A stretch of DNA of 64,000 nt from Elusimicrobiota bacterium. Lineage in GTDB: Bacteria; Elusimicrobiota; Elusimicrobia; UBA1565; UBA9628. The translations under genes and the position numbers were made by a program. Location: NCBI GenBank assembly GCA_028868375.1, contig JAGWUP010000002.1, positions 193,015 to 257,014 on the forward strand, in the 5' to 3' direction. The notes under the pieces are model-generated. The model did no database searches and had not been told where the DNA came from. It worked only from the letters and a program-made list of their open reading frames with translations. This document shows, in pieces, positions 2,297 to 63,288 of this stretch. The stretch's first letter is position 1. Every line of letters starts with the position of its first letter.

Positions 2297-4978
2297 ATGG
2301 AGGCCAAGCTGGCGCTGGAGAAGGCCTACGACCCCAAGCCGGTCGAGGCCAAGTGGCTTGAGCGCTGGGGGAAGGCCGCGGCCGGCGCCTCGCGGCCCGT
2401 CGGGGAGCGCTCCAAGCGCTTCGCGCTGGTGCTGCCGCCGCCCAACGTCACCGGGGCGCTTCATCTGGGCCACGCCCTCAACGACACCCTGCAGGACGTG
2501 CTGGTCCGCTGGCGTCGGATGCGGGGGGAGGAGGCCTGCTGGGTGCCCGGCACGGACCACGGCGGCATCGCCACCCAGAACGTGATGGAGAAGCAGTTGA
2601 AGGCCGAGGGCATGACCCGCCGCCAGATGGGACGCGAGGCCTTCCTGGAGCGGACGCGGGGCTGGGCCGGAGACTGCAAGGCGACCATCCTCGGGCAGCT
2701 GCGCCGGCTGGGCTGCGCCCTCGACTGGGAGCGCGAGGCCTTCACGATGGACGAGCCGCGGGCACGGGCGGTTTTTGCGGCGTTCAAGGCGCTTTGGGAG
2801 GACGGCTTGATCTACCGCGGCGAGCGGATGGTCAACTGGTGCGTGCGCTGCGGCACGGCCCTCTCCGACATAGAGGTCGAGCACGAGCCGCGGCGCGGCT
2901 GCCTTTGGCATATCCGCTACGGCACCCTGGTCGTGGCGACGACCCGCCCGGAGACCCTGCTCGGCGACACGGCGGTGGCGGTCTCCCCCGAGGATTCCCG
3001 CTACGCGGCGCTGGTCGGCCGCCGGGTGCCGCTGCCGCTGACGGGGCGCGAGATCCCCGTGATCGCCGATGCGCACGTCGACGCCTCCTTCGGCAGCGGC
3101 GCGGTGAAGGTCACGCCGGCCCACGATCCCAACGACTTCGAGATCTGGCGGCGCCATCCCGAGATCGGCGCGCCCCTCCAGGTGATCGGCCCCGACGGCC
3201 GGATCGCCGCGGCCGGCGGCGCCTACGCCGGCTTGTCGCGCGAGAAGGCCCGCGAGAAGATCGTCGCGGACCTTGAGGCCCAGGGCCTGCTGGTCAAGAC
3301 GGAGGACTACCAGAACGCGGTCGGCGTCTGCTACCGCTGCGCCCAGGTCATCGAGCCGCTGCTCTCCTGGCAGTGGTTCGTGCGCATGGGAGAGTTGGCC
3401 GCCCCGGCCCTTGAGGCCGTCGAGAGCGGGCGCTTCGCGCTCCATCCCTCCTCCTGGGCCAAGCCGTACGCCGAGTGGCTCCGGAACATCCGCGACTGGT
3501 GCGTCTCGCGCCAGATCTGGTGGGGCCACCGCATTCCCGTCTGGTACTGCGCGGCCTGCAACAAGATCACTCCGCAGACGGACTTCGGCCAACTGGCCGA
3601 CGCCAAGGTCGTCGTCGCTCAGTCGCGGCCGGCCTCCTGCCAAAGCTGCGGCGGGGCCGACTTCGTCCAGGACCCCGACGTGCTCGACACCTGGTTTTCC
3701 TCCGCCCTCTGGCCGATGTCGGTGTTCGGCTGGCCGCAGAAGACCGCCGAGCTGGCCTTCTACTACCCGACCCAGGTCCTGGTCACCGGCTACGAGATCC
3801 TCTATCTGTGGGTGGCGCGCATGCAGATGATGGGGCTGCGCTTCATGGGCGAGGCGCCCTTCAAGGACGCGGTGATCCACGGCATCGTTCGCGACAAAAG
3901 CGGCAAGAAGATGTCCAAGTCGCTGGGCAACGTCGTCGATCCCCTGGCGATGATGGACAAGTACGGCACCGACGCCCTGCGCTTCTCGCTGATGGCCCAG
4001 GCGCACCCCGGCCGCGACATCCCATTTTCCGAGGACTCGATCACCGGCTCGCGCAATTTCGTCAACAAGCTGTGGAACTCGACCCGCTTCGTGCTGATGA
4101 ACCTGCCGGAGTCGGTCGAGCGGCCCTACGTCCTGGAAGACCTCGACGCCTCCCGCCTGGAGCTGGCCGACCGCTGGATCCTGTCCGAGCAGCAACGCGC
4201 CAGCCAAGCCGCCGGCGAGGCCCTCGAGCGCTACGACGTCGCCGCCGCGGCCGACGCCCTCTACGGCTTTCTCTGGGACGAATTCTGCGACTGGTACGTG
4301 GAGCTGGCCAAGATCCGCCTGCAGGGCGCCGACGGCCCCGACAAGGAGGCCGCGCGGACGATCCTCGTGAGCGTGCTCTCCCGGACCTTGAAGCTCCTGC
4401 ATCCCTTCATGCCCTACGTCACCGAGGAGCTCTTCGCGGCGCTCAAGCCCTACTCCGGGGAAAGCGCCGAACTGCTCCTGCGCTCGCTCGCCCCGCGGCC
4501 GGATACCGCGCGCCGCGATCCCGAGGCCCGCGCGGCGATGGGGCGCTTGATGGAGGCGGTGACGGCGCTCCGCTCCCTGCGCGCCCAGCTCAACGTCCCG
4601 CCGGGGCTGCGCCTGCGCGTCGTCGCCTCCTCCCTGGAGGGCTTGCCCCAGCCGCAGCGAGAGTATCTGCGCGCGCTGGCCCGCGTCGACAGCCTGGAGG
4701 AGGGGCCGCGGCCCGACAAGAGCGCCACCGCGGTCGCCGCCGCCGCCAGCTTCTTCGTGCCGCTGGAGGGCGTCATCGACTTCGCCCAAGAGGCCGCGCG
4801 ATTGCGCCGGGAGCTGGAGAAGGCGCGCCTGGAGCTGGCGAAGATCGCCCAGAAAGTCGACAACCCCGGCTTTCGCGCGCGCGCTCCGCGCTCCGAGGTG
4901 GAGCTGGCCCTCTCCCAGCGCTCCGCCGCCGACGAGCGCGTCGAGCGCCTCAGCCGGACCCTGGCGCTGTTGAGCTGA
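2297..4978 (+). CDS. valS: Valine--tRNA ligase
   Basis: Class I aaRS HIGH motif (PNVTGALHLGHAL), KMSKS motif (KMSKSLGNVVDP), an editing domain and a C-terminal coiled coil. Length of 893 aa is typical for ValS. Confidence 0.95.
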   Translation: MEAKLALEKAYDPKPVEAKWLERWGKAAAGASRPVGERSKRFALVLPPPNVTGALHLGHALNDTLQDVLVRWRRMRGEEACWVPGTDHGGIATQNVMEKQLKAEGMTRRQMGREAFLERTRGWAGDCKATILGQLRRLGCALDWEREAFTMDEPRARAVFAAFKALWEDGLIYRGERMVNWCVRCGTALSDIEVEHEPRRGCLWHIRYGTLVVATTRPETLLGDTAVAVSPEDSRYAALVGRRVPLPLTGREIPVIADAHVDASFGSGAVKVTPAHDPNDFEIWRRHPEIGAPLQVIGPDGRIAAAGGAYAGLSREKAREKIVADLEAQGLLVKTEDYQNAVGVCYRCAQVIEPLLSWQWFVRMGELAAPALEAVESGRFALHPSSWAKPYAEWLRNIRDWCVSRQIWWGHRIPVWYCAACNKITPQTDFGQLADAKVVVAQSRPASCQSCGGADFVQDPDVLDTWFSSALWPMSVFGWPQKTAELAFYYPTQVLVTGYEILYLWVARMQMMGLRFMGEAPFKDAVIHGIVRDKSGKKMSKSLGNVVDPLAMMDKYGTDALRFSLMAQAHPGRDIPFSEDSITGSRNFVNKLWNSTRFVLMNLPESVERPYVLEDLDASRLELADRWILSEQQRASQAAGEALERYDVAAAADALYGFLWDEFCDWYVELAKIRLQGADGPDKEAARTILVSVLSRTLKLLHPFMPYVTEELFAALKPYSGESAELLLRSLAPRPDTARRDPEARAAMGRLMEAVTALRSLRAQLNVPPGLRLRVVASSLEGLPQPQREYLRALARVDSLEEGPRPDKSATAVAAAASFFVPLEGVIDFAQEAARLRRELEKARLELAKIAQKVDNPGFRARAPRSEVELALSQRSAADERVERLSRTLALLS

Positions 4979-23629: not shown

Positions 23630-24259
23630 CTAGGACTTCGGGGGCTTGGCGACGGAGCTCGGGCGGGGCAATTCGAAGGCGTCGCCGGTGCGCGCGTACC
23701 AGGAGCCCTCCATGCGGCCGATGGCCTTGAGGTCCTGGTGGCGCGGCTGGCCGCCGTTCCAGAGGGCGTCGGCGATCGACAGATGGACGACCTTGCCGAT
23801 CACCAGATTCCCGGCCAGGGGGCCTTCGCCGATGGTGACGACCCGCAGCAGTTGGCACTCCATCTGCGCCGGCGATTCCTTGACGCGGGGGGGCCTGACC
23901 TTGACGCTGGGCAGCGGGGTCAGCCCGACCTTCTCGAACTCGCTGACCCCGTAGGGGTAGTCGGCGGAGCTTTGGTTGATCGCCGCGGCGTTGGCCTCGG
24001 TGGCGAGGTTGACGACGAATTGCCCGGTGGCGCGCGCGTTGACCAGGCTGTCCTTCTCCCTGCCGTCCCTGTTGTTGACCGGCGCGAAGCAAACGCTCAT
24101 CGGCTTGGCGGTGATCCCGGTAAAAAAGGAGAAGGGGGCGAGATTAGGAACGCCGTCGGGCGAGATGGTCGACACCCAGGCGATCGGGCGCGGCACGATC
24201 AGCGAGATCATCACCGCGTAGCGCTCGCGCAGCTCCAGCGCCTCGGGGTCAAGCTCCAT
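23630..24259 (-). CDS. Flavin reductase-like (FMN-binding split-barrel) domain protein
   Basis: The N-terminal region (VMISLIVPRPIAWVSTISPDGVPNLAPFSFF) is the typical flavin reductase like-domain signature. Confidence 0.7.
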   Translation of the reverse strand: MELDPEALELRERYAVMISLIVPRPIAWVSTISPDGVPNLAPFSFFTGITAKPMSVCFAPVNNRDGREKDSLVNARATGQFVVNLATEANAAAINQSSADYPYGVSEFEKVGLTPLPSVKVRPPRVKESPAQMECQLLRVVTIGEGPLAGNLVIGKVVHLSIADALWNGGQPRHQDLKAIGRMEGSWYARTGDAFELPRPSSVAKPPKS

Positions 24260-25529
24260 GGCGCCTCTTGGACCAGGAGAGCGGATAGCCGCCGTCGGCG
24301 ATCTTGAGGCCCTGGCCGGTGATTTGCAGGCTCTCGAAGAAGGTGTCGAGCATCACCGCCAGCTCCCGGGACATCTTGCCGCGCGCCTTAAGCGAGCGCT
24401 TGGCGGCCTCGCCCTGCGGGCTGTGCGGCAGGCCGGAGGGATGGAAGGTGATCGAGCCCGGCTCGATGACGCCTCTGCGCGCGCCGTAGTTCGCGTTGGA
24501 GAAGAACATCACCTCGTCGCAGTCGACGTTCTGGTGGGCGTAGGGGGCCGGCACGTTCGCGGGATGCCAGCCCTCGATCTGCGGGCGGAAGGTGCAGACG
24601 GCGAAGCCGTTGCGCGGGGCCTCGCCCGACTGGAAGGTCTGGCGCGTCGGCGGGGCGGTGTGGATCTCGCGCGAGATCGAGTGCTGGTCGGCGCTGTCGA
24701 AGGAGAAGGGATAAAGCGCCCCCTGCCAGCCGGCCAGGTCGAAGGGGTGGTGGCCCAGGGTCAGCCGGGTGACCCTGCCGCCGCCGTGCTTGACGAGCAC
24801 GGTGAAGCGCCCGGCCTCATCGCGCGCCGGGGGCAGCTGCGGCAGACCGATCTCGGTCTCCACGACCGGCGCCATCAGCGTCGCCTGCCCCTGGGCGTTG
24901 AGGTAATGGGGGGCGAAATGGATCGGCTGCAGCGACTCCACGATCAGGAAGAAGGCCGGCCCCTTGGCAAGCCGCCAGCGCGTCGTCGTGCCCTTGGGCA
25001 CGAGCAGGTAGAGGCCGGGGCGGAAGGGCAGGACGCCGTACTCCGTCTCCAGGCTGCCCCGGCCCTGCTGGACGAACAAGAGCTCGTGGGCCTCGCCGTT
25101 GCGGAAGAACTCGCCGGCGGGCGTGGAGCGGTCGGGGCGAGAGACGGAAATCGTCGTCGCGGGGCCGGCCAGCAGCGGGCGGCGCGCGCGCCAGAAATCG
25201 CCGCCGGCGGCCAGCCTGGCCGTCCTCAGATGGAAGGGCTGCAGCGGCAACTCCTGGGTCGGCTCCGCTCGCAGGTCGAAATCGGCCAGCCGCGGCGGCG
25301 CCACCTGCTCGGTGGGATAGCGCCGCAGGTGCATCTTGCGCGAATAGGCCCCGGAGAAGCCGTAGACGCCGTGGATCTCCTCCAGCGCCAGCAGTCCCGG
25401 CTTGGCGTGGAACTCGGTGTGGGGGACCTTCGGCACCTTGCCGCGCGTCGCGATCACCGCCATCGCGGCAGTATAGCTATTTTGCCGGTACCTCAAGCTG
25501 CCTCCGGTCTGCCCCGGCTGTGCTGCCAT
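24249..25529 (-). CDS. hmgA: Homogentisate 1,2-dioxygenase
   Basis: Length of 426 aa. Conserved HGD cupin regions (HELLFVQQGRGSLETEYGVLPF; NGFAVCTFRPQIEGWHPA; DEVMFFSNANYG...ITFHPSGLPHSP). It is adjacent to fah. Confidence 0.85.
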   Translation of the reverse strand: MAAQPGQTGGSLRYRQNSYTAAMAVIATRGKVPKVPHTEFHAKPGLLALEEIHGVYGFSGAYSRKMHLRRYPTEQVAPPRLADFDLRAEPTQELPLQPFHLRTARLAAGGDFWRARRPLLAGPATTISVSRPDRSTPAGEFFRNGEAHELLFVQQGRGSLETEYGVLPFRPGLYLLVPKGTTTRWRLAKGPAFFLIVESLQPIHFAPHYLNAQGQATLMAPVVETEIGLPQLPPARDEAGRFTVLVKHGGGRVTRLTLGHHPFDLAGWQGALYPFSFDSADQHSISREIHTAPPTRQTFQSGEAPRNGFAVCTFRPQIEGWHPANVPAPYAHQNVDCDEVMFFSNANYGARRGVIEPGSITFHPSGLPHSPQGEAAKRSLKARGKMSRELAVMLDTFFESLQITGQGLKIADGGYPLSWSKRRHGA

Positions 25530-25950
25530 GATTTCGCCGGTGAAAAGCCGACACGGTCGGGGCTTCAGCTAAGAAGCGCTGAGGTGGGTGACGGCGAGGA
25601 ATGCGGCGAGCGAGCACTGAGGACCTGCGTCACGATAATATGGTTATTTTGGACGGACGATTTTGGAGCGAGCCGAGGAGTGAGGAGCGAGCATAGCGAT
25701 CGCTATGTGAGCGACGAACGACGAAGGCGCAGCCCAAAATCGTCCGTCCCCTTCAGGGCGACCCGATTCCGGTCGATTTCATCGTTGCTCCTCGGTCACA
25801 TGGCCTGCGGCCATGCTCCCTCCTCGCGTCTTGAAATCGCCACGGACTCGGGTCGCCAAAATGACCATATTATCGTGACGCAGGTCCTTTGGGGCGCAGC
25901 GAAGCCGCGTCTGGAGCCGTCAGGACCCGCCGCAGCGCTTCTTAGCTGAG
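25520..25950. mobile_element. MITE-like palindromic element, family copy A (about 430 bp), between the fah stop and the hmgA start
   Basis: Nested inverted repeats: cagctaagaagcgctg (25566-81) pairs with cagcgcttcttagctg (25932-47); ggacctgcgtcacgataatatggt (25621-44) pairs with accatattatcgtgacgcaggtcc (25864-87); ggacggacgattttgg pairs with ccaaaatcgtccgtcc. The centre reads gagcatagcgatcgctatgtgagcgacgaacgacg. Related copies lie at 31000-31465 and 29037-29330. Confidence 0.55.
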
Positions 25951-25952
25951 GA

Positions 25953-26966
25953 TCAGTGGGGCCCGGAGTAGAGCAGCCGCCGCTGGGCTTTCGGCGCGCC
26001 GACGACCTGGCGCAGGGTGCCCAGTCGCTCGACCGTCAGCTCCAGGACGTCGCCGGGCTTGACCCAGCGCTCGAGATCGAGGCCGCAGCCCTTGTAGTAG
26101 GTGCCGCTGCCCAAGAGGTCGCCGGGATAGACCGTCTCCTCCTGCGAGACGTGCGAGAGCATCAAGGGAAAGCTCCAGCGGCGGCCCGTGGAGCTGGACT
26201 CGCTCCAGGGCTCCCCGTTGACCTTCAGGGTCATCTTAAGCCCCTCCGGCTCGGGCAATTCGTCGGCGGTCAGAAGGTAAGGGCCAAGCCCCGTGGCGAA
26301 GTCCTTGCCCTTGGCCGGGCCCATCCGGCAGACCATCTCGCTCTTCTGGATGTCGCGCGCCGAAAAATCGTTCAAGATCGTGTAGCCGGCGATGTGGCGC
26401 GCCGCCTGCTCGACGGAGAGGTCCCTGCCCTTCTTGCCGACGACGCAGCCGATCTCGAACTCGAAGTCGAAGCGGCGCGTGTAGCTGGGCCAGGGGACGG
26501 TGTCGCCGGGGCCGTAGATCTCGCGGTGGTTTCCTTTATAATAGACCGGCTGGTCGTACCACTGCGGCGCCAGCGGCTCGCCCCGGCGCTTGGCGCCCTG
26601 CAGGGCGTGCTCCTCGAAGGCGAAGAAATCGCGCAACGCCCTCGGGCGCGGCAAGGGGGCCAAGAGGCGCGCCTCGTCTTCCTTGTAAACCAGCCGCTCC
26701 CCGCGACTTCCCGCTTCAAGCCTTCCCCGGCGGACGTCCTCCAGCGCCTCGCGCGCCGCCTCGAGGGCCTCGCTTCCACCGTCCAGGAAGGCCAGCATCT
26801 CCGCCGGAAGCAGGGCGTCGGCCAGGCGCCGGGGCGCGGCCTTGCCCTGGGCGGCCAGGCGGGCGGCGCAGGCGAAGTTGAGGTCGACCATCCCGCCTTC
26901 AAGAAGGGCGCCCAGGCGCTCGAAGGGTCCCAAGGGCGTGCTGACCTCGAAGGTGACCAGCTTCAT
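25953..26966 (-). CDS. Fumarylacetoacetate hydrolase (FAH) family protein
   Basis: The FAH-fold C-terminal domain shows conserved acidic/metal-binding stretches (FAFEEHAL, GNHREIYGPGD, FDFEFEIGCVVGKKGRD, GYTILNDFSARDIQ). Confidence 0.8.
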   Translation of the reverse strand: MKLVTFEVSTPLGPFERLGALLEGGMVDLNFACAARLAAQGKAAPRRLADALLPAEMLAFLDGGSEALEAAREALEDVRRGRLEAGSRGERLVYKEDEARLLAPLPRPRALRDFFAFEEHALQGAKRRGEPLAPQWYDQPVYYKGNHREIYGPGDTVPWPSYTRRFDFEFEIGCVVGKKGRDLSVEQAARHIAGYTILNDFSARDIQKSEMVCRMGPAKGKDFATGLGPYLLTADELPEPEGLKMTLKVNGEPWSESSSTGRRWSFPLMLSHVSQEETVYPGDLLGSGTYYKGCGLDLERWVKPGDVLELTVERLGTLRQVVGAPKAQRRLLYSGPH

Positions 26967-29036: not shown

Positions 29037-29330
29037 CTAGTGTAGTGAATCATAAATCCCTTTGCATTTGGAGGCCCAATCCCGAGACGATTTCCAGGAG
29101 CGACGACCGAGAATAGCCGCAGCTATTTGAGGGAGAAGCGACGCAGAAATGGGCCGGGATTGGGCCTCCCCTGACTCTGAAGTCTTGATTGGGGAGGGGC
29201 AGCGCCATTTCGCCCGCCTGGCTTCGTTGCTCGTCGCTTGCATAGCTTAGGCTATGCGCGCTCCTCGCGCCTCGCCAGGCGCCAAACTGGCGCTGCCAAA
29301 TGCAAAGGGATTTATGATTCACTACACTAG
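29037..29330. mobile_element. MITE-like element (294 bp) with perfect 35-bp terminal inverted repeats
   Basis: The TIR ctagtgtagtgaatcataaatccctttgcatttgg (29037-71) pairs with ccaaatgcaaagggatttatgattcactacactag (29296-29330). The interior shares the family core (cgttgctcgtcgcttgcatagcttaggctatgcgcgctcctcgc, compared with cgtcgttcgtcgctcgcata... in the other copies). Confidence 0.6.
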
Positions 29331-30999: not shown

Positions 31000-31465
31000 A
31001 AGCCCCGTCCATCTTCCCGATCCTCGGCTAAGAAGCGCAGGCGGCGGGTCCTGATGGCTGCGGACGCGGCTTCGCTGCGCCCCCGTAGGACCTGTGACAC
31101 GATTATATAGACGATTTGGAGGCATGAGCTTGAGGCGATTTCGAGGCGCGAGGAGGGAGCATGGCGATCGCCATGTGACCGACGAGCAACGAAGAAATCG
31201 ACCAAGATCATGCCTCTGCCCTACGCCCGGGCGATTTTGGGCTGCGCCTGCGTCGTTCGTCGCTCGCATACCGCTGCGGGTATGCTCGCTCCTCGCTCCT
31301 TGGCTCGCTCCAAAATCGCCTCGGCCAAATCGTCTATATAATCGCGTCACAGGTCCTCAGTGCTCGCTCGCCGCGTTCCTCGCCATCACCCACCGCAGCG
31401 CTTCTTCGCTGAAGCTCTGGCCGCGTCGACTTTTCACCGGTGAGGCGAGATCATGGCAGCGCAAT
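31000..31465. mobile_element. MITE-like palindromic element, family copy B (inverted relative to copy A), carrying a duplicated hmgA 5' fragment at its right end
   Basis: The terminal repeat cggctaagaagcgc (31025-38) pairs with gcgcttcttcgctgaag (31398-31414). Inner repeat: ggacctgtgacacgattatatagacgatttgg pairs with ccaaatcgtctatataatcgcgtcacaggtcc. The centre reads gcatggcgatcgccatgtgaccgacgagcaacg. The right flank cttttcaccggtgaggcgagatcATGGCAGCGCAATCGGGGCAG resembles the hmgA start region (ATGGCAGCACAGCCGGGGCAG at 25529) and is followed by a stop after 11 codons. Confidence 0.55.
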
Positions 31466-31488
31466 CGGGGCAGATCGACGGCATTTAG
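31453..31488 (+). pseudogene. Duplicated hmgA start fragment (MAAQSGQIDGI*)
   Basis: The first 7 codons match the hmgA N-terminus MAAQPGQ at 18 of 21 nt, and ~25 nt of upstream sequence is also shared (cttttcaccgg...atcATGGCAGC). Confidence 0.5.
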
Positions 31489-31504: not shown

Positions 31505-31568
31505 AGTGACACACTTCGCTGGGACGATTTTGGAGCGAGCCAAGGTGCGGCGAGCGACGCAGGTCCTT
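31505..31568. repeat. Fragment of the same MITE-like family
   Basis: gacgattttggagcgagccaaggtgcggcgagcgacgcaggtcc resembles the inner arm of copy A (gacgattttggagcgagccgaggagtgaggagcgagc ... ggacctgcgtc). Confidence 0.3.
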
Positions 31569-32385
31569 AGAGGCAGGAGCGCGCGGCCAGATGCGTCGGG
31601 TTGAGGTTCTCGGAGGCGTTGATCGGAGACCAGTAGATGCTCCCGCCGCCGCCGTCGCCGGCCGAAAACCCCGCGGCGCCGCCTCCGTCGAAGAGCACCG
31701 CGTCGGTGGCGCCGAGCCGGCGCATGAGCGCCGCCATCCCGGCCAGGGTGGCCCCGCGCGGCCTGAGGATGTCCCCGCTCAGGATCGACTGGGCCGACTG
31801 CGGCGCGCTGACGATCAGCAATTGCTGGCGGCCGTCGACCGTCCGCAGTCCCACGGCGGTGCGCGCGGCGGGGCGCGAAAGCATGTCCGGAGAAAAGCTT
31901 TCTCCGGGAGTCGAGCCCCGCGGCAGGTTGTCGGCGCTAAGGTCCTTGCCGTCGAGCAGAAGAATCGCTCCGCCGCCCAGATAAAGATCCATCGTCTCGA
32001 TCGCCTCGTCGTCGCGCGCGATCGCCAGAGTGCCTTTGCCGCGCAGCCGTCCCAGCGCCCAACGCCGGCCCAGGTCGACGACCCGGCCGTCGCCGGGGCG
32101 GAGGACTCGGTAGCGGGGATGGTACTCTCTTCCGTCGGAGGCCAGCACGTCGCCCATGGGCTGTCCTTGCCCGAAATAGGTGCCGTTGACGACGACTGTT
32201 CCCAGGCCGCGCGCTCGCCAGAAGCGCATCGGCTCATAGGAGACGATCAAATTGTCGGAGGGACGCTCGATGACGGCGAGAGCGTAATCCACGCCCCTGT
32301 CGTAGGCCTTTTCCCAGCACCGTTGGGGGCCTATGTCCGCGCGCGCCGCCAGCGCCCACGCCGCCGCCGCCATCCACTCGATCAT
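31567..32385 (-). CDS. Hypothetical protein, possibly phosphodiester glycosidase (DUF2233/NAGPA-like) family
   Basis: NGTYFGQG ... GGGAILLLDGKDL ... DGRQQLLIVSAPQS ... AVLFDGGGAAGF resembles the NAGPA-domain pattern (NGGFF...GGPxLLxDG...DGGGS). The assignment is by pattern only. Confidence 0.4.
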   Translation of the reverse strand: MIEWMAAAAWALAARADIGPQRCWEKAYDRGVDYALAVIERPSDNLIVSYEPMRFWRARGLGTVVVNGTYFGQGQPMGDVLASDGREYHPRYRVLRPGDGRVVDLGRRWALGRLRGKGTLAIARDDEAIETMDLYLGGGAILLLDGKDLSADNLPRGSTPGESFSPDMLSRPAARTAVGLRTVDGRQQLLIVSAPQSAQSILSGDILRPRGATLAGMAALMRRLGATDAVLFDGGGAAGFSAGDGGGGSIYWSPINASENLNPTHLAARSCL

Positions 32386-32511
32386 GCCCGCAGTTTACGG
32401 GTGCTCGGCGAGCGCGCCAATGCCCGAAGGACCTATTTAGTTGGCAGTCTTTAGACCCATGCTCTTCGATGTGGCCTTGCGCGATCCGAGTCGGGCAGCT
32501 ATGCTTGTCTC

Positions 32512-33009
32512 GTGAGCGCGAGATATCTCCTGGCTGCCTGTTTCCTGTTCTTGCGGGCTTCGGCCTTCGCCGCGCCGGGATGCCTTTTTCGCTTCAAGGG
32601 AAGTTACAGGGATTCCGGAACGCAGTTTGTCCCTGTTGTCATCGCCTTCCCGGGTTTTATTTGGATTGGGGGAATGACAGGTTCTCTTGATGCCGCGGAC
32701 CAGATTAAAGTTTCGCTCGATGTATTGCAAAAAGGTCGGGCCTGGAGGTGGAGCTACGCCGGGGATTTCAAGCCCTCCGTTTGGCCGCAGGCCGATTTGA
32801 GATGGAGAAGCAACAAAGACGACCCGAAATGCCAGGTGTCTGTCTGGCTTCTGAATCATTACGATCAGTATGGGTCGGTCGCCGCCGGGATTGGACAAAT
32901 CGTGAGCCATTGCAGCGAGCCTGGAAGCCGTTGCCGGGACAGTGTTCCTGAAGGAGTAAAACGCCACTTCCCCAACAAATTCCCGTGGGAGAAGTTCAGT
33001 CTTCCCTGA
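32512..33009 (+). CDS. Small secreted hypothetical protein (165 aa) in a locally low-GC segment
   Basis: Signal peptide (MSARYLLAACFLFLRASAFAAPG). GC is visibly lower at 32440-33010 than in the surroundings. The overlapping minus-strand ORF 32437..32967 has no signal or motif and is considered less likely. Confidence 0.4.
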   Translation: MSARYLLAACFLFLRASAFAAPGCLFRFKGSYRDSGTQFVPVVIAFPGFIWIGGMTGSLDAADQIKVSLDVLQKGRAWRWSYAGDFKPSVWPQADLRWRSNKDDPKCQVSVWLLNHYDQYGSVAAGIGQIVSHCSEPGSRCRDSVPEGVKRHFPNKFPWEKFSLP

Positions 33010-33054
33010 AATCCGTTCCCTTTCCGCGTGAGGGCGCAGGGCTGGGCCTCGAGG

Positions 33055-34023
33055 TCAGTACGAGGCCAAGGCGCCGGGGCGGGCGTAGCCGGCGACCCCG
33101 AAGCGCGTGCCCTTGGGGCGCAACAGGACCAAGTGCAGAGTGACGCCGGAGCGGCGGCCCGCCGCGCCGAGCAGCACGGCGCGCTGGCCGGGCCTGGTGC
33201 CGCCTCCGACGTAGAACTCGACGTGGGTGACGCCGTCGTTGGGAGGGCGCTCGCCGGGCCGCAGGATGTAGGAGTAGGTATTCTGAAAAAAGATCAGGTC
33301 CCCGGGGCGCGGATCGCGGGAGAAGGAGAGGCCGGCGGCGTCGGCGCGGGCCTGGTCGTATTGGCCGTCGGCGGTGTTCAGCCAGGTGGGGGCCTCGGAC
33401 ATCGTCTTGGTGAAGGTTCCGCAATTGAAGGTGTCGATGTTGTTGGGGTGGTAGAGATTGTAGCGGTCGCCGATGTGCTGGGCGGCGTTGTAGAGGGCGA
33501 GTAGGTACGGGTGAGCCAGGCGGGCGAAGAGGCCTTGGTAGCGGACCATGTCCTGGCGGCGCGCGTCGAGCAGCTTGGCGGTGTCGGGATCGACGGCGCG
33601 GATGTCGCCGGGCAGGGCGTAGATGGCCTTGAACAGGGCCAAGGCGGCGTAGATCTGCGGCAGGCTTTTCAGCTGCAGGCGGTGGTTCCAATCGGCCAGG
33701 ACCGCTTTCAACTCGGCCAGCCGCGGGTCCTTCATGGTCGCCGGGCTGAGATAGAAGCCGGCCAGGGACGCGGGCTCGCCGTGGACCGCCGGCGCGGGCA
33801 GGTCCGAGGTTTCTTCTTTAAGGACAGGATGGACGACGGGGAACTTGGGCGCCATCGCGCTGACGAGAGCGTCGACTCTTTCGGCCCGCGCCTTCACCGT
33901 GGCGGTGGAGACATCGCCCGCCTGCGCCAAGCGCGAAATCTCGGCCTGATAGGGGTGGGGCTGGGCGCAGACCCTTCCCGCCAACCCGACGGCCATCGCG
34001 ACGGCGAGGTTGAAGCTCTTCAT
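33055..34023 (-). CDS. Secreted papain-fold hydrolase, NlpC/P60-like (putative)
   Basis: Signal peptide from an internal ATG (MKSFNLAVAMAVGLAGRVCAQ). A Cys...His arrangement (FNCGTFTKTM ... GDLIFFQNTYSY ... THVEFYVGGG) resembles the C40 pattern (DCSG ... GDLvFF ... HVgIYiG). The ORF as listed extends to 34089. Confidence 0.4.
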   Translation of the reverse strand: MKSFNLAVAMAVGLAGRVCAQPHPYQAEISRLAQAGDVSTATVKARAERVDALVSAMAPKFPVVHPVLKEETSDLPAPAVHGEPASLAGFYLSPATMKDPRLAELKAVLADWNHRLQLKSLPQIYAALALFKAIYALPGDIRAVDPDTAKLLDARRQDMVRYQGLFARLAHPYLLALYNAAQHIGDRYNLYHPNNIDTFNCGTFTKTMSEAPTWLNTADGQYDQARADAAGLSFSRDPRPGDLIFFQNTYSYILRPGERPPNDGVTHVEFYVGGGTRPGQRAVLLGAAGRRSGVTLHLVLLRPKGTRFGVAGYARPGALASY

Positions 34024-39961: not shown

Positions 39962-40731
39962 TGGGCAACTCTGCCAGGCTCTCCCAGCATTTCCTGGAGG
40001 ACGAGGCCGCGCGGCAGGCCATCGTCGCCGCCGTCCGCCCGGCGGGGCGGCGGGTGCTCGAGATCGGCCCCGGCCGCGGAGCCTTGAGCGAGCCGCTGTT
40101 GGAGGGCGGCGCCGCGCTGACCGCCGTGGAGCTGGACGACAGGCTCTGCGAGGGATTGCGCCCGCTGCTGGGCCGGGGGCTGCGGCTGATCCACGCCGAT
40201 TTTTTGACGCTCGATTTGGGCCGCCTGGGCCAGGGCCCCTACGCCGTCGTCTCCAACCTGCCTTACGCGGTCGCCAGCCCCATCCTGCGCCGGCTCTTGG
40301 ATTGGAGCGGCTGGAGCGAGGCGGTGCTGATGTTCCAGAAGGAAGTGGCGCTTCGGGTGTGCGCCGCGCCCGGCGGGGCGGACTACGGCCTGCTGAGCCT
40401 GGCCGCGCAGATCAAGGCCGAGCCGGAATGGCTCTTCGAGCTGCCGCCCTCGGCGTTTCGCCCGCCGCCGCGCGTGACCTCCGGCGTGATCCGGCTGCGC
40501 CGCCGCGCCGAGCCGCTGGTTTCTTCCGAGGAAGAGCCGGGCTTCTTCCGGCTCGCCAGGGAGGCCTTCGCCCAGCGCCGCAAGATGGCGGCCTCCTCCT
40601 TGTCGCGGGCCTTGTCGCGGCCGCGCTCAGAGGTGGAACGCTTGCTGGAGGGCCGCGGCGTTTCCGCCCGCGCCAGGCCGCAGGACATCCCGCTGGCGGT
40701 TTGGATCGCGCTCTCGCGGGAGCGGCGGTGA
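39961..40731 (+). CDS. rsmA: 16S rRNA (adenine1518/1519-N6)-dimethyltransferase
   Basis: LSQHFLEDE, VLEIGPGRGALS (SAM-binding) and VVSNLPYAVASPIL motifs. The ATG overlaps the murC stop (TGATGG). Confidence 0.85.
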   Translation: MGNSARLSQHFLEDEAARQAIVAAVRPAGRRVLEIGPGRGALSEPLLEGGAALTAVELDDRLCEGLRPLLGRGLRLIHADFLTLDLGRLGQGPYAVVSNLPYAVASPILRRLLDWSGWSEAVLMFQKEVALRVCAAPGGADYGLLSLAAQIKAEPEWLFELPPSAFRPPPRVTSGVIRLRRRAEPLVSSEEEPGFFRLAREAFAQRRKMAASSLSRALSRPRSEVERLLEGRGVSARARPQDIPLAVWIALSRERR

Positions 40732-40738
40732 GGCGGCG

Positions 40739-42235
40739 GTGAGCGCGCGCCGCCGCCTGGCATTGCTCTGCGGCGCGGCCTTCCTCTATCTGCTTTGCCG
40801 GCACGCCTACTACGTCGGCTTCTTCAACGACGACGCCTTCTACATCATCGGGGCTCGCTCCCTGTTGAGCGGCCGCTACGCCGAGCTCAACGCCCCGCTG
40901 GCGCCTCCGCTGGTCAACTACCTGCCCGGCTTCTCGTTGCTGCTCTCTCCCGTGGCGGCCCTGGCCGGACGCGCCTTGTGGCCCTATCAAGCGGCGAGCG
41001 CGGCGCTGCTCTTGGCGGGGCTATGGTGGTTTTCCTCGCTCGCCTCGGCGCTCTGCCCCGAGGACGCTTGGGCCGCCCTGGCGCTGGCCGCCTTCACCCC
41101 GCTGGCCGTCAGCATGTCCTGGACCGTCCTGTCGGACGTGCCGATGCTGGCGGCGGCGATGGCCGCCTTGGCCTGGGCGCGGCGCCTCTGGCCGGAGGAG
41201 CGTCCCTCGCGCTGGCTGGGCTTGGCGGCCTTGGTCGGCTTTGCGGCGCTGCTGCGTCCCACCGGGGCGGCGCTGGCCCTTGCCTTCGCCCTGGCGCTGG
41301 CTTGCGAGCGGCGCTGGGCCTTGTCCGCCTTGAGCGCCTCCTGCGCCGCGGCTTGGCTGCTGCCGTTTCTAGCGCGCAACTACGCGCTGACCGGACATGC
41401 CCTGCTGTACGTCTCGGAGCTGGCCGCGCCGTACGCGGGCCATGGGCGCTGGAGCATTCTCGCGGGGACCGTCTTATTGAACCTCGCCTATTATCTCAGG
41501 CTGGTCTTCGAGACGATGCTCTTTCGCTGGCCCGTCGCCGCGGCCGCGGGCTCCCCGTTGACGGCGGCCACGGTCGGGCTGGGCTCGGTCGCCGCCGCGA
41601 CGGGCCTGAGCGCCGCGGGCTGGAAGGGGTGGGCCAAACTGCCGGCCCTGTTCTTGGTCCTGTTTTTGGCCGCCCATCTGGCCTGGAGCAAGCAGGCCGC
41701 GCGCTACCTGCTGCCGGTCCTGCCGCTGGCCTTCGCGTATTTTTTGCGCGGCGTCCGGGTTCTCGGCGCGCGCGCGGGCGCTTCCCGCGCGGCCGCGCCG
41801 GCCGCCGCCATCCTCGCCCTGCTCCTGATGCTGCCCACGGACCTGCGCGTGGCCGAGGCCTCCTGGAGGCGCGATTCTTCGGTGACGCGGCCGCCCGAGA
41901 GGACCATGGCCTGGGTCCGCGGCCATACCGCGCCCTCCGACGTCTTCGCCGTCGAGCTGGACGGGCGCTTCTATCTGCTGACGGGGCGGCGCGCGCTGCA
42001 TCTGCGCCGTCTCTCCGGTCCGCGGGCCTTCGCGCGCTGGCTGGCGTCTTCCGGCGCGCGCTACGTGGCGGTCTTTCCCGACGACTACGCCCTGGCCACC
42101 AAACGCGGCGACGCTTTCGACGATCCGCTGCCGGCCGCCGTGCTGCTGTCCTGGCTTTCCGATCCCGCGCGCTATCGGCTGGACTTCTCCGATCCGGCTG
42201 AGCGCTCGGCGATCTACGAGCGCCTCGGACGCTAG
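40739..42235 (+). CDS. Integral-membrane GT-C type glycosyltransferase (ArnT/PMT/GT39-83-like), putative
   Basis: Roughly 10-12 predicted TM helices, a YYVGFFNDDAFYI N-terminal loop with DD (a GT-C DxD-like loop) and a C-terminal soluble domain. Confidence 0.5.
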   Translation: MSARRRLALLCGAAFLYLLCRHAYYVGFFNDDAFYIIGARSLLSGRYAELNAPLAPPLVNYLPGFSLLLSPVAALAGRALWPYQAASAALLLAGLWWFSSLASALCPEDAWAALALAAFTPLAVSMSWTVLSDVPMLAAAMAALAWARRLWPEERPSRWLGLAALVGFAALLRPTGAALALAFALALACERRWALSALSASCAAAWLLPFLARNYALTGHALLYVSELAAPYAGHGRWSILAGTVLLNLAYYLRLVFETMLFRWPVAAAAGSPLTAATVGLGSVAAATGLSAAGWKGWAKLPALFLVLFLAAHLAWSKQAARYLLPVLPLAFAYFLRGVRVLGARAGASRAAAPAAAILALLLMLPTDLRVAEASWRRDSSVTRPPERTMAWVRGHTAPSDVFAVELDGRFYLLTGRRALHLRRLSGPRAFARWLASSGARYVAVFPDDYALATKRGDAFDDPLPAAVLLSWLSDPARYRLDFSDPAERSAIYERLGR

Positions 42236-42265
42236 CTGACGGCGCCTAACATCCGTCCGGGACGG

Positions 42266-42322
42266 CTCGTCGTTTATCGTCCGCCGGGCCCTCAGACGCC
42301 CCGTCAGACGATAAACGACGCG
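42266..42322. terminator. Bidirectional hairpin between convergent genes
   Basis: cgtcgtttatcgtc (42268-81) ... gacgataaacgacg (42309-22) form a 14-bp perfect inverted repeat with a GC-rich loop. It lies between the GT-C gene stop and the hybrid kinase stop. Confidence 0.45.
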
Positions 42323-42405
42323 CCGGTCTGTCCCGGTTCTGCTGTCACGGGTTCACCCGCCAGCGAAAAGTCGACGCCTTCCATGCGGCCGAGGATCGGG
42401 GCAGG

Positions 42406-58432: not shown

Positions 58433-59376
58433 GCGCTCCCCGCGACGCCGGCCTCGACCTCGTCTTGGACGAGCTCTTCGATTTGACCTTGTACCAGGAG
58501 CTGGCCAAGACCTCCAGCGGTCCCCTGCGCGAAGTGCTCTCCGATTTGATTCCGGTGGAGACCCGGCATCTCTCCTTCTGGAAGTCGTTCTTCAAGATCG
58601 AGCGCTCCGAGCTGGACTGGCCGCGGCGCCTGAAGCTGCGGGCGTTGCTGCTCACGGCGCGCCTGCTGGGGCCGGTCGGCACGCATCTGACCCTGGAAGC
58701 CATCGAGATCTACGGCATCCGGAAATATCTGGCCCTCTGGCAGCGCTACCGAGACACCGAGCTCGGCGAAGCGGTCCGGGGCGTCCTGTCCGACGAGTTC
58801 GGGCATGAGGACGAGATCGTCTCGCGCGCGGGCGCGCGCCGCGTCGATCCAGAGCGCGTGCGCAGCGTCTTTCTAGGCTTCAACGACGGCTTAGTCGAGA
58901 TCCTGGGCGCCGTCTCCGGGTTCTTCGCGGCGCTGGGCAACGCCCGCCTCGTGCTGCTGGCCGGCGTCAGCGTCGCCGCCGCCGGCGCCTTTTCCATGGG
59001 CAGCGGCGCCTACGCCGCCGCCAGCTCCGAGGACGAGGTCGAGCGTCTGGAGCGGGGCCGCCGCGAGTTTTTGGGCAAAGAGCCCGGCTCCGCCGGCGGG
59101 GCCTCTCCCGCCGCCATCGGCTGGCTGGTCGCAGCCTTCTACTTGCTGGGCGCCCTGGTGCCGCTCTTGCCGGTGGCCTTCGGCGCCAGCACCCTGCTGG
59201 CCCCTGTCCTGGCCGGCGCGGTCTTCAGCGTGCTCGTCTCCCTGGTGCTGTCCTTTCTCTCCGGCATGAACGCGCGCCGCCGCATCCTCCTCAACCTCGC
59301 CATGGTCGCTTGCGCCGTCGCCTGCTCCTTCGCGGTGGGCTGCGCGGCGCGCCGGCTTTTCGGCCTGGCCTTCTAG
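58429..59376 (+). CDS. VIT1/CCC1-family membrane protein with an N-terminal ferritin-like domain (putative iron/manganese transporter)
   Basis: An N-terminal ferritin/rubrerythrin-like ExxH pair (LYQELAKT ... ETRHLSFWKSF ... DEFGHEDEI) is followed by the VIT-type TM region (GFNDGLVEILGAVSGF ...). A TTG start overlaps the upstream stop. The listed ORF 57979.. is the out-of-frame extension. Confidence 0.55.
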   Translation: MSAPRDAGLDLVLDELFDLTLYQELAKTSSGPLREVLSDLIPVETRHLSFWKSFFKIERSELDWPRRLKLRALLLTARLLGPVGTHLTLEAIEIYGIRKYLALWQRYRDTELGEAVRGVLSDEFGHEDEIVSRAGARRVDPERVRSVFLGFNDGLVEILGAVSGFFAALGNARLVLLAGVSVAAAGAFSMGSGAYAAASSEDEVERLERGRREFLGKEPGSAGGASPAAIGWLVAAFYLLGALVPLLPVAFGASTLLAPVLAGAVFSVLVSLVLSFLSGMNARRRILLNLAMVACAVACSFAVGCAARRLFGLAF

Positions 59377-59398
59377 GCCGGCGTCAGCCGGGGTGCTT

Positions 59399-59872
59399 CT
59401 AGCTTCTGTAGGAGCCCTTGAAGCTTTTCTCGGCCTCGCGGGCGGTGGCGCGCTTCTTGAGGTCCTCGCGGCGGTCCGGTCCCTTCTTGCCGCGCGCCAA
59501 GCCCAGCAGCACCTTGGCCCAGCCGCGACGAAAGTAGACCTCCAGGGGGACCAAGGTCAGGCCCTTGCCCTGCAGGCGGCCGGACAGGCGATCTAACTCG
59601 CGGCGGTGCATCAGCAGCCGGCGCGAGCGCCGCGGATCCGGGGGGGAGACGGTGGCGAATTGGTAGGGGGGGATGTAGAAGTTGAACAGGGAGAGCTGCC
59701 CTCCATCCAGGCGCCCGAAGCAGCCGTCCAGGGAGGCGCGGCCGCCGCGCAGGGACTTGACCTCGCTGCCCAAAAGGCTCAAGCCCGCCTCGTAGGTCTC
59801 CAGTATCTCGTAGATGGCGCGGGCCTTCCGGTGGGTGGCGACGACGCGCTTGTCGTCGGACTTCGTTTTCAT
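59399..59872 (-). CDS. smpB: SsrA-binding protein
   Basis: Full-length SmpB pattern (ATHRKARAIYEILETYEAGLSLLGSEVKSLR ... GKGLTLVPLEVYF ... KKGPDRREDLKKR). Confidence 0.85.
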   Translation of the reverse strand: MKTKSDDKRVVATHRKARAIYEILETYEAGLSLLGSEVKSLRGGRASLDGCFGRLDGGQLSLFNFYIPPYQFATVSPPDPRRSRRLLMHRRELDRLSGRLQGKGLTLVPLEVYFRRGWAKVLLGLARGKKGPDRREDLKKRATAREAEKSFKGSYRS

Positions 59873-59910: not shown

Positions 59911-59998
59911 TGGGCAGGTGGCGGAATTGGCAGACGCGCACGGCTCAGGACCGTGTGGCCGCAAGGCCTTGGGGGTTCAAGTCCCCCCTTGCCCACCA
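59911..59998 (+). tRNA. tRNA-Leu (anticodon CAG), long variable arm
   Basis: tgggcaggtggcggaattggcagacgcgcacggctCAGgaccgtgtggccgcaaggccttgggggttcaagtccccccttgcccacca. It has D-loop GGAATTGG, a long variable arm and T-loop GGTTCAAGTCC. The acceptor 5' strand tgggcag pairs with ttgccca. Confidence 0.8.
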
Positions 59999-61885: not shown

Positions 61886-63288
61886 AGAAGGCTGCCGTCG
61901 AAACGCCCGCGCTCCACGAGGCCGTAGGACGCCAAGCGCCGGCGCCAAGCCTCGTCCAAGACGCGCGCCGGAACGAATATCCGCTGACCGGAGGCCCTAA
62001 GCTCGTCCAACTCGGCGGGAAGGGCTTGCGGGCGCGGTTCCCAATAGAAGAGGTTCAGCGGCTTGCGGTGGGCGAAGTAAGGGACGTAGACCTGGTCGTT
62101 GCCGGTGACGACGACCCAAGCGTCGGGCGGGACCTGTCCCTTGAGCCAAAGGGCTTCCCGGTACTCGGGATTGGAGGACGGCTTGGTCTTCGGCAGAATT
62201 CCGGAGATGCCGTTGACCAGGCCCAGAGCCGCGGCCAGCGCCGCCCCCGCCCAGGGCGCGGACTCGAAGGCGACGGCGGCCAGAAACCAAAGCGGGAGCA
62301 GGTCGCTGAGGCGATAGACCATGGTGAACGGCTCCCAGGAAAGATAGAGGGCGGCGTAGCCGGCCAGCCAGAGCAGGCAGAGGCGCGTTTGTACGGCGCG
62401 AGCGCCGCGGCGAGCGCGCCAGGCGCCGAGCGCGGCGGCGCCCAGCAGGCCCAGGCCCAGGGCCAGAGCGGCCCAGCCTTGCGGCCCGGCCAGCGGGGAG
62501 AAGTCGGAGACGATGCGGGCGCTCATCGCGGCCCATTGGCGCAGGCCGGCCCAGCTGTAATAGCGGCCGTGCCAGGCGAAGGCGCGCCGATGGTTGAGAG
62601 CGGCGCTGCCCAATAGCCACAGCTTAAGCTGTCTCCAGGAGTCCGGCTTGACGCAGAAGGCCGCGGCCAGGGCGTAGGCGCAGCCCAGGGTGGCCGCGGC
62701 GCAGGCGGCCCAGCGCCGCAGGGCCCGGGCGCGCTCCCGGCCCGCGGCGCGCCAGAGGGCGTAGGCCGCCGCCGGGGCCGCCATCAGATGGCCCGCATGG
62801 CCCAGCATCGCCAAGCCCTGCAGCATTCCCAGCCGCCCGGGGCGGGGACGGTCGCAGAGCAATTCGCCCAGAAACCAGGCCATCGCCAAGAGGCCCAACA
62901 GATAGACCTGGGCCTCCAGGCTCCACAGCCAAAAGCCGTATGAGAAAGACAGGCCGGCCGCGGCCGCCAGGGCCGCCGGCCTGCGAACCTCGGCGCGGCG
63001 CAAGGCCAGAAAGAAGGAGCCGGCGGTCGCCGCCCCCAGCAGAGAGTCCAAGACCTGGAGGCTCAACAGCGCCGGGCCGCGGTAGCCCAAGAGCGTCCAC
63101 AGCTTGAAGAAGCCCCAGCCCAGCACGCCGTAGGCCAGGTGGTTGCCGTGGACCAAGTGCCTTAAGTCGCCCAGCTCGACCGCGATCGCGCAGGCCACGC
63201 CGTCGAAGTTGTAGAAGTAGGAGTGAAAGCACAGATAGAACAGCGCGGCGGCCGCGGCCAAGAGCGCGGCCAGGCGGCGGTCGCTCAT
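61744..63288 (-). CDS. Polytopic membrane protein (possible GT-C / O-antigen-ligase-like), hypothetical
   Basis: Roughly 10-12 hydrophobic helices and a C-terminal soluble ~150 aa. The 3' end overlaps convergent pilD by ~140 bp. Confidence 0.45.
   Translation of the reverse strand: MSDRRLAALLAAAAALFYLCFHSYFYNFDGVACAIAVELGDLRHLVHGNHLAYGVLGWGFFKLWTLLGYRGPALLSLQVLDSLLGAATAGSFFLALRRAEVRRPAALAAAAGLSFSYGFWLWSLEAQVYLLGLLAMAWFLGELLCDRPRPGRLGMLQGLAMLGHAGHLMAAPAAAYALWRAAGRERARALRRWAACAAATLGCAYALAAAFCVKPDSWRQLKLWLLGSAALNHRRAFAWHGRYYSWAGLRQWAAMSARIVSDFSPLAGPQGWAALALGLGLLGAAALGAWRARRGARAVQTRLCLLWLAGYAALYLSWEPFTMVYRLSDLLPLWFLAAVAFESAPWAGAALAAALGLVNGISGILPKTKPSSNPEYREALWLKGQVPPDAWVVVTGNDQVYVPYFAHRKPLNLFYWEPRPQALPAELDELRASGQRIFVPARVLDEAWRRRLASYGLVERGRFDGSLLYEAIGTSGKPSGRMRKRLSRAAATKKGPKGMGSERRKRPAASRLKP

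Follow-up and report, generated by a model that had tools for sequence, protein, structure and literature searches.

What is the long palindrome that lies between two genes of an operon in an Elusimicrobiota bacterium, and how did it come to be there? The stretch of DNA that was analysed, referred to as the window, comprises 64,000 nucleotides of contig JAGWUP010000002.1 (assembly GCA_028868375.1, positions 193,015 to 257,014 of the forward strand), and coordinates given below are those of the window unless another record is named. An earlier note had described a nested palindrome of roughly 430 bp at 25520-25950 that resembled transposable elements of the miniature inverted-repeat type (MITEs). 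The element, designated E1, is probably a non-autonomous transposable element of this type, in which a head-to-head dimer of about 267 bp is enclosed in a palindromic shell with an additional tail, and which belongs to a family distributed over several phyla.

Extent and predicted fold of E1

The palindrome is real and occupies 25506-25956, slightly more than had been noted. Alignment with MAFFT showed that E1 is 88% identical to the reversed sequence of 31000-31480 and that the homology stops near 25506 and 25956; BLASTN paired 25522-25954 with 31460-31019. Four inverted-repeat pairs were detected in E1, i.e. 25565-25589/25925-25949 (25 nt, 92%; the outermost, designated I2), 25620-25652/25856-25888 (33 nt, 97%), 25651-25666/25734-25749 (16 nt, 100%) and 25757-25771/25843-25857 (15 nt, 93%). 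The first three are nested, in agreement with the earlier count of at least three nested pairs, and the fourth lies beside the third and is not nested in it. E1 consists of the following parts.

25506 to 25956, no strand: whole repeat unit common to E1 and its copy E2, about 450 bp (451), made up of tail, palindromic shell and inner dimeric element
25506 to 25564, no strand: asymmetric tail of about 60 nt, outside the outer inverted repeat, with conserved columns only with E2
25565 to 25620, no strand: left arm of the outer palindromic shell, imperfect, with purine-rich internal loops, pairing with 25888-25949 in RNA and DNA folds
25888 to 25949, no strand: right arm of the outer shell, identified from inverted repeat I2 and the folds
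25621 to 25887, no strand: inner dimeric T-shaped element, 267 bp, with termini GGACCTGCG.../...CGCAGGTCC
25620 to 25652, no strand: left arm of the A+T-rich outer stem or terminal inverted repeat, 33 nt, 97% complementary to 25856-25888
25856 to 25888, no strand: right arm of the same stem, pairing with 25620-25652
25651 to 25749, plus (purine-rich GA strand): hairpin unit A, core 25670-25731, covariance model R1 71.6 bits, E 1e-21
25757 to 25857, minus (GA strand): hairpin unit B, core 25775-25837, covariance model R1 66.7 bits, E 4.5e-20

Alignment with 11 other dimers showed that the inner element is homologous to the dimers of about 270 bp in other Elusimicrobia metagenome-assembled genomes (MAGs), and the 33-nt terminal arms are homologous to the termini of these dimers. 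RNA folding, which had been proposed as a check, showed that the arms do pair: the mRNA-sense strand of E1 gave -230.6 kcal/mol, compared with -154.9 +/- 5.4 kcal/mol for dinucleotide shuffles (z = -14.2), and folding as DNA gave z = -13.3. In the minimum-energy folds of both RNA and DNA, a long stem leads to two adjacent hairpins, forming a three-way T- or Y-shaped junction. A hairpin with arms of about 190 bp, as suggested in the earlier note, was about 8-10 kcal/mol worse than the minimum-energy fold for E1, about equal to it for E2 and 17-22 kcal/mol worse for the related element E3. Such a hairpin is nearly isoenergetic for E1, but the conserved fold is the T-shaped one, in which the outer stem carries two hairpins of about 100 nt.

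Related copies in the window

At least two further copies had been claimed for the window. These were identified as an inverted copy of E1 and a related element, and the remnant of a deleted unit was found in addition.

31012 to 31476, inverted: E2, a full copy of E1 (88% identical), with the inner element at 31088-31356 and cores at 31138-31199 (plus) and 31243-31306 (minus)
29037 to 29330, no strand: E3, a related dimeric element with an unrelated, perfect, A+T-rich outer stem of 35 nt (CTAGTGTAGTG.../...CACTACACTAG)
31515 to 31567, plus: remnant of a deleted unit, with a 43-nt inverted match to 31286-31328 and a weak match to R1 at 31537-31567 (14.4 bits)

The family covariance model, R1, which was built on 69 non-redundant units, detected six units in the window, all of them scoring 48-76 bits. 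They form three pairs, each with a unit on the plus strand followed by one on the minus strand. The cores of E3 lie at 29090-29151 (plus, a 'swapped' variant) and 29217-29278 (minus). Eight differences were found between E1 and E2 in the 33-nt outer stem, and each change is present in both arms of the copy concerned. The same strain is represented by three further, independent short-read assemblies, 99.97-100% identical to the window, which break inside E1, E2 and E3, and contig ends in such positions are typical of repeats. E1, E2 and E3 account for three of the five non-coding gaps of more than 300 nt in the window, and the region of E1 is among the few stretches without an open reading frame (ORF) that has a coding-type signal in the G+C content of third codon positions; the ORFs listed across E1 are mechanical. 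E1 is small (less than about 500 bp), non-coding, multi-copy and bounded by inverted repeats, and its description as MITE-like is borne out by these properties and by the 3-bp TTA/TAA target duplications of the wider family (see below).

Several additional observations were made on these copies. The family elements are clustered: all four that the 64 kb contain lie within a span of 6 kb. The breaks in the other assemblies correspond to window position 31194 (start of locus L117), to 29185 and 25809 (ends of L118) and to 29064 and 25882 (ends of L119). The perfectly complementary stem of E3 and the CTAG on both of its flanks suggest a recent insertion; the CTAG flanks fit a duplication of TA, a duplication of CTAG or a mere extension of the palindrome. 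In public assemblies a spurious 56-aa gene has been placed inside E3 by the gene caller. The remnant is the 5′ half of a unit, to which the right terminus ...GACGCAGGTCCT and then TAG are attached, and lies between E2 and the stop codon of ORF 31567-32385, ending just before that stop. A 23-mer specific to E1 and E2 gave no match in a metagenome scan, and a third copy of the composite was not found.

Distribution of the family

The core of about 60 nt was searched for with the pattern GAGGAGSGMGCAT-N8-18-ATGYRASCGASGA, which matches five of the six window units, gave no match in 100 shuffles of the window and, by our estimate, is expected by chance about once in the whole genome collection. 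In this species-representative collection the pattern was present at more than 116 loci among the matches listed. According to the record titles, these belong to at least six phyla, i.e. Acidobacteriota (mainly Vicinamibacterales), Myxococcota (including the cultured Nannocystis radixulma), Elusimicrobiota, Bacteroidota, Actinomycetota and Pseudomonadota. The module was also found at 120 metagenome loci, and the covariance model detected 118 units in 100 loci. Several copies per genome were present in other MAGs. The usual forms are monomers of about 160 nt and head-to-head dimers of about 270 nt; most elements outside the window are single hairpins, and dimers occur mainly in Elusimicrobia MAGs. 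Some of these dimers contain extra insertions of 40-110 nt (L064 6342-6444, L084 2433-2515, L078 about 4560-4676), located between the two modules or inside one of them, indicating that the junction and loops tolerate or attract insertions.

Viral contigs gave no match to the core. Among plasmids no match to E1 was found and the monomer gave a single match, at 100042-100208 of plasmid NZ_CP087953.1 of Desulfosarcina sp. BuS5 (L124 6001-6167). This copy lies unannotated between two genes, one of them hypothetical, on a plasmid of the conjugative type.

Conserved core helix

In the first sample, taken with the core pattern, the helix reads from outside in G-C, C-G, (G·A, A·G), G-C, (G·A, A·G), G-C, S-S, (G·A, M·R), G-Y, C-G, A-U, U-A, and an additional (G·A, M·R) step is located outside the series. 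Of 69 sequences, 37 have G-C and 31 have C-G at the S-S position, and M·R is A·G or C·A in most cases and A·A in a few. The core helix was paired in 91.4%, compared with 76.3% for shuffled and 17-39% for slid alignments. For the T-shape, evaluated on 12 dimers, 92.1% of cells were paired, compared with 69.7% (shuffled) and 32-40% (slid), and compensatory changes were observed in 64 of 84 pairs.

A second sample was drawn from metagenomes and was chosen only on the flanking segments GGCAAGGCGYGA ... GYAACGCAGCC. It yielded 106 distinct matches with 104 distinct helix inserts, and the canonical sequence was present in only four. The pattern nevertheless persisted, and the steps of the helix in this sample (n = 104) were occupied as follows.

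Steps 1-2: G·A 91, A·G 90
Step 3: Watson-Crick, with C-G 53, G-C 35, A-T 11
Steps 4-5: G·A 80, A·G 81
Steps 6 and 7: Watson-Crick, covarying
Step 8: G·A 74
Step 9: A·G 41, C·A 22, A·A 7
Step 10: G·U 65, G-C 19

Three to four tandem G·A/A·G steps are retained, whereas covariation of the Watson-Crick pairs is free. In the 'swapped' variants (GCGACGACCGAGAAUA...UAUUUGAGGGAGGAGC), represented by one unit of E3 and one of locus L046, the G-C pairs that separate the G·A steps are inverted. These comparisons indicate that it is the geometry, i.e. tandem purine-purine steps at a fixed spacing, and not the sequence that is conserved. Steps of the type 5′-GA/3′-AG form sheared pairs in RNA and in DNA, a geometry that A·G, A·A and C·A can adopt interchangeably. 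Interpretation of the core as a dif/Xer-like or an attC-like site, or as a Shine-Dalgarno sequence with an AUG mini-ORF, was rejected because the positions concerned vary or covary as a helix.

Termini and target-site duplications

Naive outward extension, attempted twice, failed to define termini in G+C-rich DNA. Strict X-drop outward extension gave full-length monomers of 158-166 nt. The geometry is uniform, the distance from the core to the terminus being 60-62 nt on the 5′ side and 61-63 nt on the 3′ side (168-170 nt in dimers); the termini of the inner element of E1, at 25621 and 25887, lie 61-62 nt from each core, as across the family. Termini of class I read GGGYYCG (GGGCCCG, GGGCTCG, GGGTTCG or GGGTCTGTCAC), followed by RGAATA, and GGGGTTG was also found among the family ends. 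A second class, C-TA-GTG...CAC-TA-G, carries the same module and was found in E3 and at loci L046, L081, L086 and L017.

Identical 3-nt flanks were present in 14 of 35 candidate terminus pairs (seven TAA, six TTA and one GTA), compared with a chance of 1/64, and several of the 35 pairs are spurious, having the wrong geometry. The duplicated triplet often occurs in the context C-TWA-G. The copy on the Desulfosarcina plasmid has class-I termini with perfect TTA duplications and reads TTA/GGGTTCGCAC...GCGCGAGCCC/TTA; an ordinary, fully paired helix of the same length replaces the G·A helix in this copy. Taken together, the class-I termini and the TTA/TAA duplication form a signature of the Tourist/PIF-IS5 type, the same as in PIF/Harbinger elements and their Tourist MITEs.

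Strand bias and orientation

Mismatches between the arms outside the core were predominantly of one kind, G·T/T·G being observed in 205 cases versus 106 for A·C/C·A, and G·A/A·G in 274 versus 53 for C·T/T·C. This strand bias extends to the terminal nucleotides. These counts derive from related sequences, but their direction is clear: it is the fold of the purine-rich strand that is preserved, which excludes a purely double-stranded reading; RNA and DNA fit alike. In a dimer, each strand read 5′ to 3′ begins with a purine-rich hairpin.

With respect to neighbouring genes, the GA strand was sense in 20 and antisense in 13 cases in the first sample, and the corresponding ratios in the second sample were 28:35 and 29:27. 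Relative to GC skew the ratio was 34:53 in the first sample and 35:34 in the second. Arguments from co-transcription and from the lagging strand were dropped, since the weak orientation biases of the first sample were absent from the second. A recurrent neighbouring gene family was not found within 2.5 kb of 116 loci, and the clusters obtained were spurious ORFs across the repeats. Random orientation and the lack of a recurrent neighbour argue against host cis-regulation and against lagging-strand-dependent transposition. The random orientation is compatible with a trans-acting enzyme that inserts copies at random and with selection on the copies that propagate.

Insertion of E1 into the host operon

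The genes surrounding E1 are the following.

25953 to 26966, minus: FAA-hydrolase-family (FAH-family) gene, upstream of E1, Pfam PF01557 (E 4.5e-52), stop codon 25953-25955
24249 to 25463, minus: HgmA_N-like cupin gene, downstream of E1, true start ATG 25463
23630 to 24259: flavin reductase gene, after the HgmA-like gene

These had been taken for fah and hmgA of a tyrosine-catabolism operon, with the element in the 5′ untranslated region or promoter of hmgA. The location between the FAH-family stop and the HgmA-like start was confirmed, and the FAH-family stop codon lies within the last 7 nt common to E1 and E2. The start, however, is at 25463 and not at ATG 25529, which lies inside the tail of E1: the N-terminus read from ATG 25463 (MAVIATRGKVPKVPHTEF) matches the N-termini of homologues. 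The gene names did not hold, the FAH-family protein scoring 64.6 bits (TIGR01266 cut-off 375) and the HgmA-like protein 48 bits (TIGR01015 cut-off 511). Since both scores are far below the cut-offs, the genes are best regarded as encoding an FAA-hydrolase-family protein and a distant HgmA-like cupin, and not as bona fide fahA/hmgA or part of the classical tyrosine pathway. NCBI assigns the exact FAH-family protein to an Elusimicrobia MAG.

The two genes are 489 nt apart in the window, about 450 nt of this gap being E1. Relatives with 74-76% identity in FAH lack the element; in one of these (L120) there is an overlap of 17 nt between the genes, and in the others (L121-L123) nothing but a nitroreductase gene lies between them. 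Because the gene pair overlaps or adjoins in relatives without the repeat, sequence comparison identifies E1 as an insertion into the operon, as the earlier note had proposed.

The suggestions that E1 might serve as a promoter donor or as an attenuator were not upheld: scans of 25300-26100 detected neither a sigma-70-like promoter nor any intrinsic terminator-like site, and the interpretation as an intrinsic terminator or attenuator was rejected because no G+C-rich hairpin followed by a U run is present in this region. A promoter-like pair (TTGAGG, 15 nt, TATACT) was seen at 25467-25496 on the minus strand, outside the repeat and 6 nt before the HgmA-like ATG. If used, it would produce a nearly leaderless mRNA; its spacer is shorter than the scan accepts, and it carries little weight.

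E1 landed at the 3′ end of the FAH-family gene, supplies its stop codon and parts it by 489 nt from the HgmA-like gene. Upon co-transcription, the mRNA would carry a fold of about -220 kcal/mol immediately after the FAH-family stop codon and 41 nt ahead of the HgmA-like start, and the overlap present in relatives would be lost. The most likely effects would be a loss of translational coupling and a boundary for RNA processing or stability (3′-protective), and true termination by E1 is unlikely. A processing or protective boundary and reduced coupling, without termination, would be expected from the known behaviour of REP, ERIC and Correia sequences.

Relation to known elements and alternative explanations

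The bacterial IS5 family forms a group related to the PIF/Harbinger elements and generates 3-4-bp TNA/YTAR duplications. For PIF/Harbinger elements, the terminal inverted repeat (TIR) of ZmPIFa is GGGCCCGTTTGTTT, with a TTA duplication, and that of OsPIF2 is GGGGTTGTTTGG (PMC6327408). The E1 family resembles Tourist MITEs, PIF/Harbinger and IS5 elements in being small and non-coding, with inverted termini starting GG(G/C) and a 3-bp TTA/TAA duplication. It differs from them in that a deleted transposase gene is not what makes up the interior, which is a hairpin module that is conserved and shows tandem G·A steps as well as mismatches with a strand bias, and in that a second set of termini (C-TA-GTG...CAC-TA-G) bears the same module. 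Like the Correia elements of Neisseria, enterobacterial ERIC, pneumococcal BOX/RUP and the REP/BIME sequences of E. coli, its members are intergenic, multi-copy and often located just after stop codons. Those elements form stable hairpins when co-transcribed, which affect mRNA processing and stability (MITE review PMC10969869). Unlike them, each being confined to a genus or family, the E1 family spans several phyla and has a distinct non-canonical helix, and no sequence similarity to any of them was seen. A similarity in shape only exists to the T-shaped inverted terminal repeats of adeno-associated virus, which have a long stem, two side-by-side hairpins and GAGC-type repeats; E1, in contrast, is not at a genome end, its family has no match in viral contigs and no Rep gene, and its purine-rich strands oppose each other as G·A mismatches and not as a duplex Rep-binding element. 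The 'widespread MITE' of Cardinium was rejected as a relative, being an unrelated IS982 derivative.

Searches of the window and 18 loci against Rfam 15 at the gathering threshold detected only tRNA and a cobalamin riboswitch, both elsewhere, and E-value searches over E1 and over the monomer gave chance-level matches only. A literature search by module sequence returned only unrelated primers, and a search by keyword (bacterial Tourist-like MITEs, tandem-GA repeats, Acidobacteria MITEs) returned no description; the lack of a match in these papers and in viral contigs is no proof of novelty. A cross-phylum MITE family with a strand-specific tandem-G·A helix as its conserved part is apparently undescribed.

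Because the TTA/TAA duplication and inverted termini match, the family would most likely be mobilised in trans by a DDE transposase of the IS5 or PIF/Harbinger kind encoded elsewhere. One defined strand folds alone at a stage that is important for persistence of the family, since the G·A steps are retained and the mismatches are strand-biased. Given the random orientation relative to genes and GC skew, this stage would probably belong to the element's own propagation, e.g. through a protein recognising the folded strand or an extruded cruciform. A host regulatory role is less likely than a role in propagation.

Several points weigh against such a MITE origin. Target-site duplications, suggested as a check, were found in the family (the 14 of 35 pairs given above), but no clean duplication surrounds the inner element of E1 (TGA/TTT) or E2 (TGA/TAC). 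Neither a cognate transposase, likewise suggested, nor a transposase of any other kind was detected in the window, within 2.5 kb of the 116 loci or on the Desulfosarcina plasmid, which thus has none of the IS5 type; the result holds for these regions only. The terminus and duplication signature is the single line of evidence that points to an IS5/PIF enzyme, and cut-and-paste of double-stranded DNA alone leaves strand-biased mismatches up to the termini unexplained. E1 and E2 may stem from segmental duplication or recombination rather than transposition, because they share sequence beyond the palindrome on one side. The first set of loci was chosen with the canonical core pattern, so that its apparent sequence invariance is partly a product of construction, and the family counts derive from related sequences and not from independent events. 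About 10% of members, including the Desulfosarcina copy, have an ordinary fully paired helix. Finally, the putative empty sites are those of relatives whose FAH identity is no higher than 74-76%, and not those of strains of the same species.

A further-reaching proposal, which we offer tentatively, is that the tandem-G·A hairpin is an undescribed structured motif, widespread across phyla, that acts as folded single-stranded DNA or RNA and is specifically recognised by a protein, as part of a new hairpin-dependent mobilisation or RNA system.

It is unlikely that the elements are functional structured RNAs kept by the host, as a stabiliser, processing site, attenuator or protein-binding non-coding RNA, with their repeat nature being secondary. 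The RNA fold on the mRNA-sense strand is very stable (-221 to -231 kcal/mol), covariation is strong, strand-specific and includes G·U pairs, and the alternation of A·G, C·A and A·A at one step would fit a sheared-pair geometry; bacterial MITEs and REPs are also known to affect mRNA stability. However, the GA strand is randomly oriented relative to genes (20:13, then 28:35) and its gene neighbourhood is not conserved, relatives have the same operon without the element, promoter-like and terminator-like sites are lacking in it and it matches no Rfam family, and terminal repeats with target duplications are unexpected of an RNA gene.

Mobilisation as single-stranded DNA by an HUH-type enzyme (cf. 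REPINs/RAYTs and the TnpA of IS200/IS605), with the folded GA strand as substrate and the TIRs only apparent, is quite improbable. The family does resemble REPINs in consisting of hairpin-forming repeats whose arm complementarity is kept by compensatory change, and REPINs have been proposed to act as single strands. Strand-specific folding to the very ends (G·T 205 versus A·C 106; G·A 274 versus C·T 53) and the maintenance of non-canonical steps under selection would agree with such a mechanism, and the T-shape with GAGC/GAGG-rich arms recalls the hairpins of HUH Rep proteins, which is taken as a lead only. IS200/IS605-derived elements have no TIRs and no duplication, carry subterminal hairpins in the same orientation and show a strand bias with replication. 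In the E1 family the flanking triplets are true duplications, the middle base matching (TTA with TTA, TAA with TAA) in 13 cases, whereas IS200/IS605 and REPINs make no such duplications; moreover, the weak GC-skew bias of the first sample vanished in the second (35:34), and no RAYT or TnpA-like gene recurs near the copies. The conserved GTAG/CGTC tag that PMC3733652 gives for the REP superfamilies was not present. REPs are characterised by such a tag at one end, by a linked RAYT gene and by the lack of target duplications, and the E1 family shows none of these features, its termini being GGGYYCG or GTG. Membership of the REP/REPIN-RAYT group was rejected for its duplications, the missing tag and the lack of a recurrent neighbour gene, and an IS200/IS605-derived palindromic element for its inverted termini and duplications, the opposite orientation of its units and the lack of a reproducible GC-skew bias.

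A local accident, in which duplication and inversion of neighbouring sequence produced a palindrome with neither family nor mobility, might be suspected from the distance of only 5 kb between E1 and E2 and their common sequence beyond the palindrome on one side, and can be dismissed, being refuted by homologous modules with the same geometry and compensatory changes at hundreds of loci elsewhere.

Other features of the window

A 63-nt imperfect palindrome at 42263-42325, with 31-nt arms that are 84% complementary and a 1-nt loop, is unrelated to the E1 family; it lies about 30 nt after a TAG and has no T run. The only other stretches of more than 300 nt without a convincing coding signal are 32395-33057, which holds a 176-aa ORF without a Pfam match, and 58873-59401, which is flanked by ORFs that end at 58872 and start at 59402 and precedes tRNA-Leu(CAG), located at 59912-59998, by about 500 nt. 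Strong A/T skew of opposite sign was observed in the 2-kb bins 40001-42000 (-0.36) and 62001-64000 (+0.27), and no tandem repeat was reported there.

Implications

Locally, E1 illustrates the way in which two translationally coupled genes can be parted by an insertion. Elements of this kind break short-read assemblies and give rise to spurious ORFs and wrong start sites, as in the 426-aa 'hmgA' ORF. The family provides a bacterial counterpart of the plant Tourist elements, with GGGCCCG termini and a TTA/TAA duplication. Bacterial MITEs are usually restricted to a lineage and have drifting interiors. In this family it is the interior that is conserved best, among bacteria from soil, groundwater and gut that belong to several phyla, which points to a specific recognised structure, DNA or RNA, for which there is no Rfam model. 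If the tandem-G·A hairpin does belong to a hairpin-dependent system, the MITE would be the visible part of that system and not a passive deletion derivative of an insertion sequence, and the head-to-head dimer would be an adaptation that provides a functional purine-rich hairpin on each strand.

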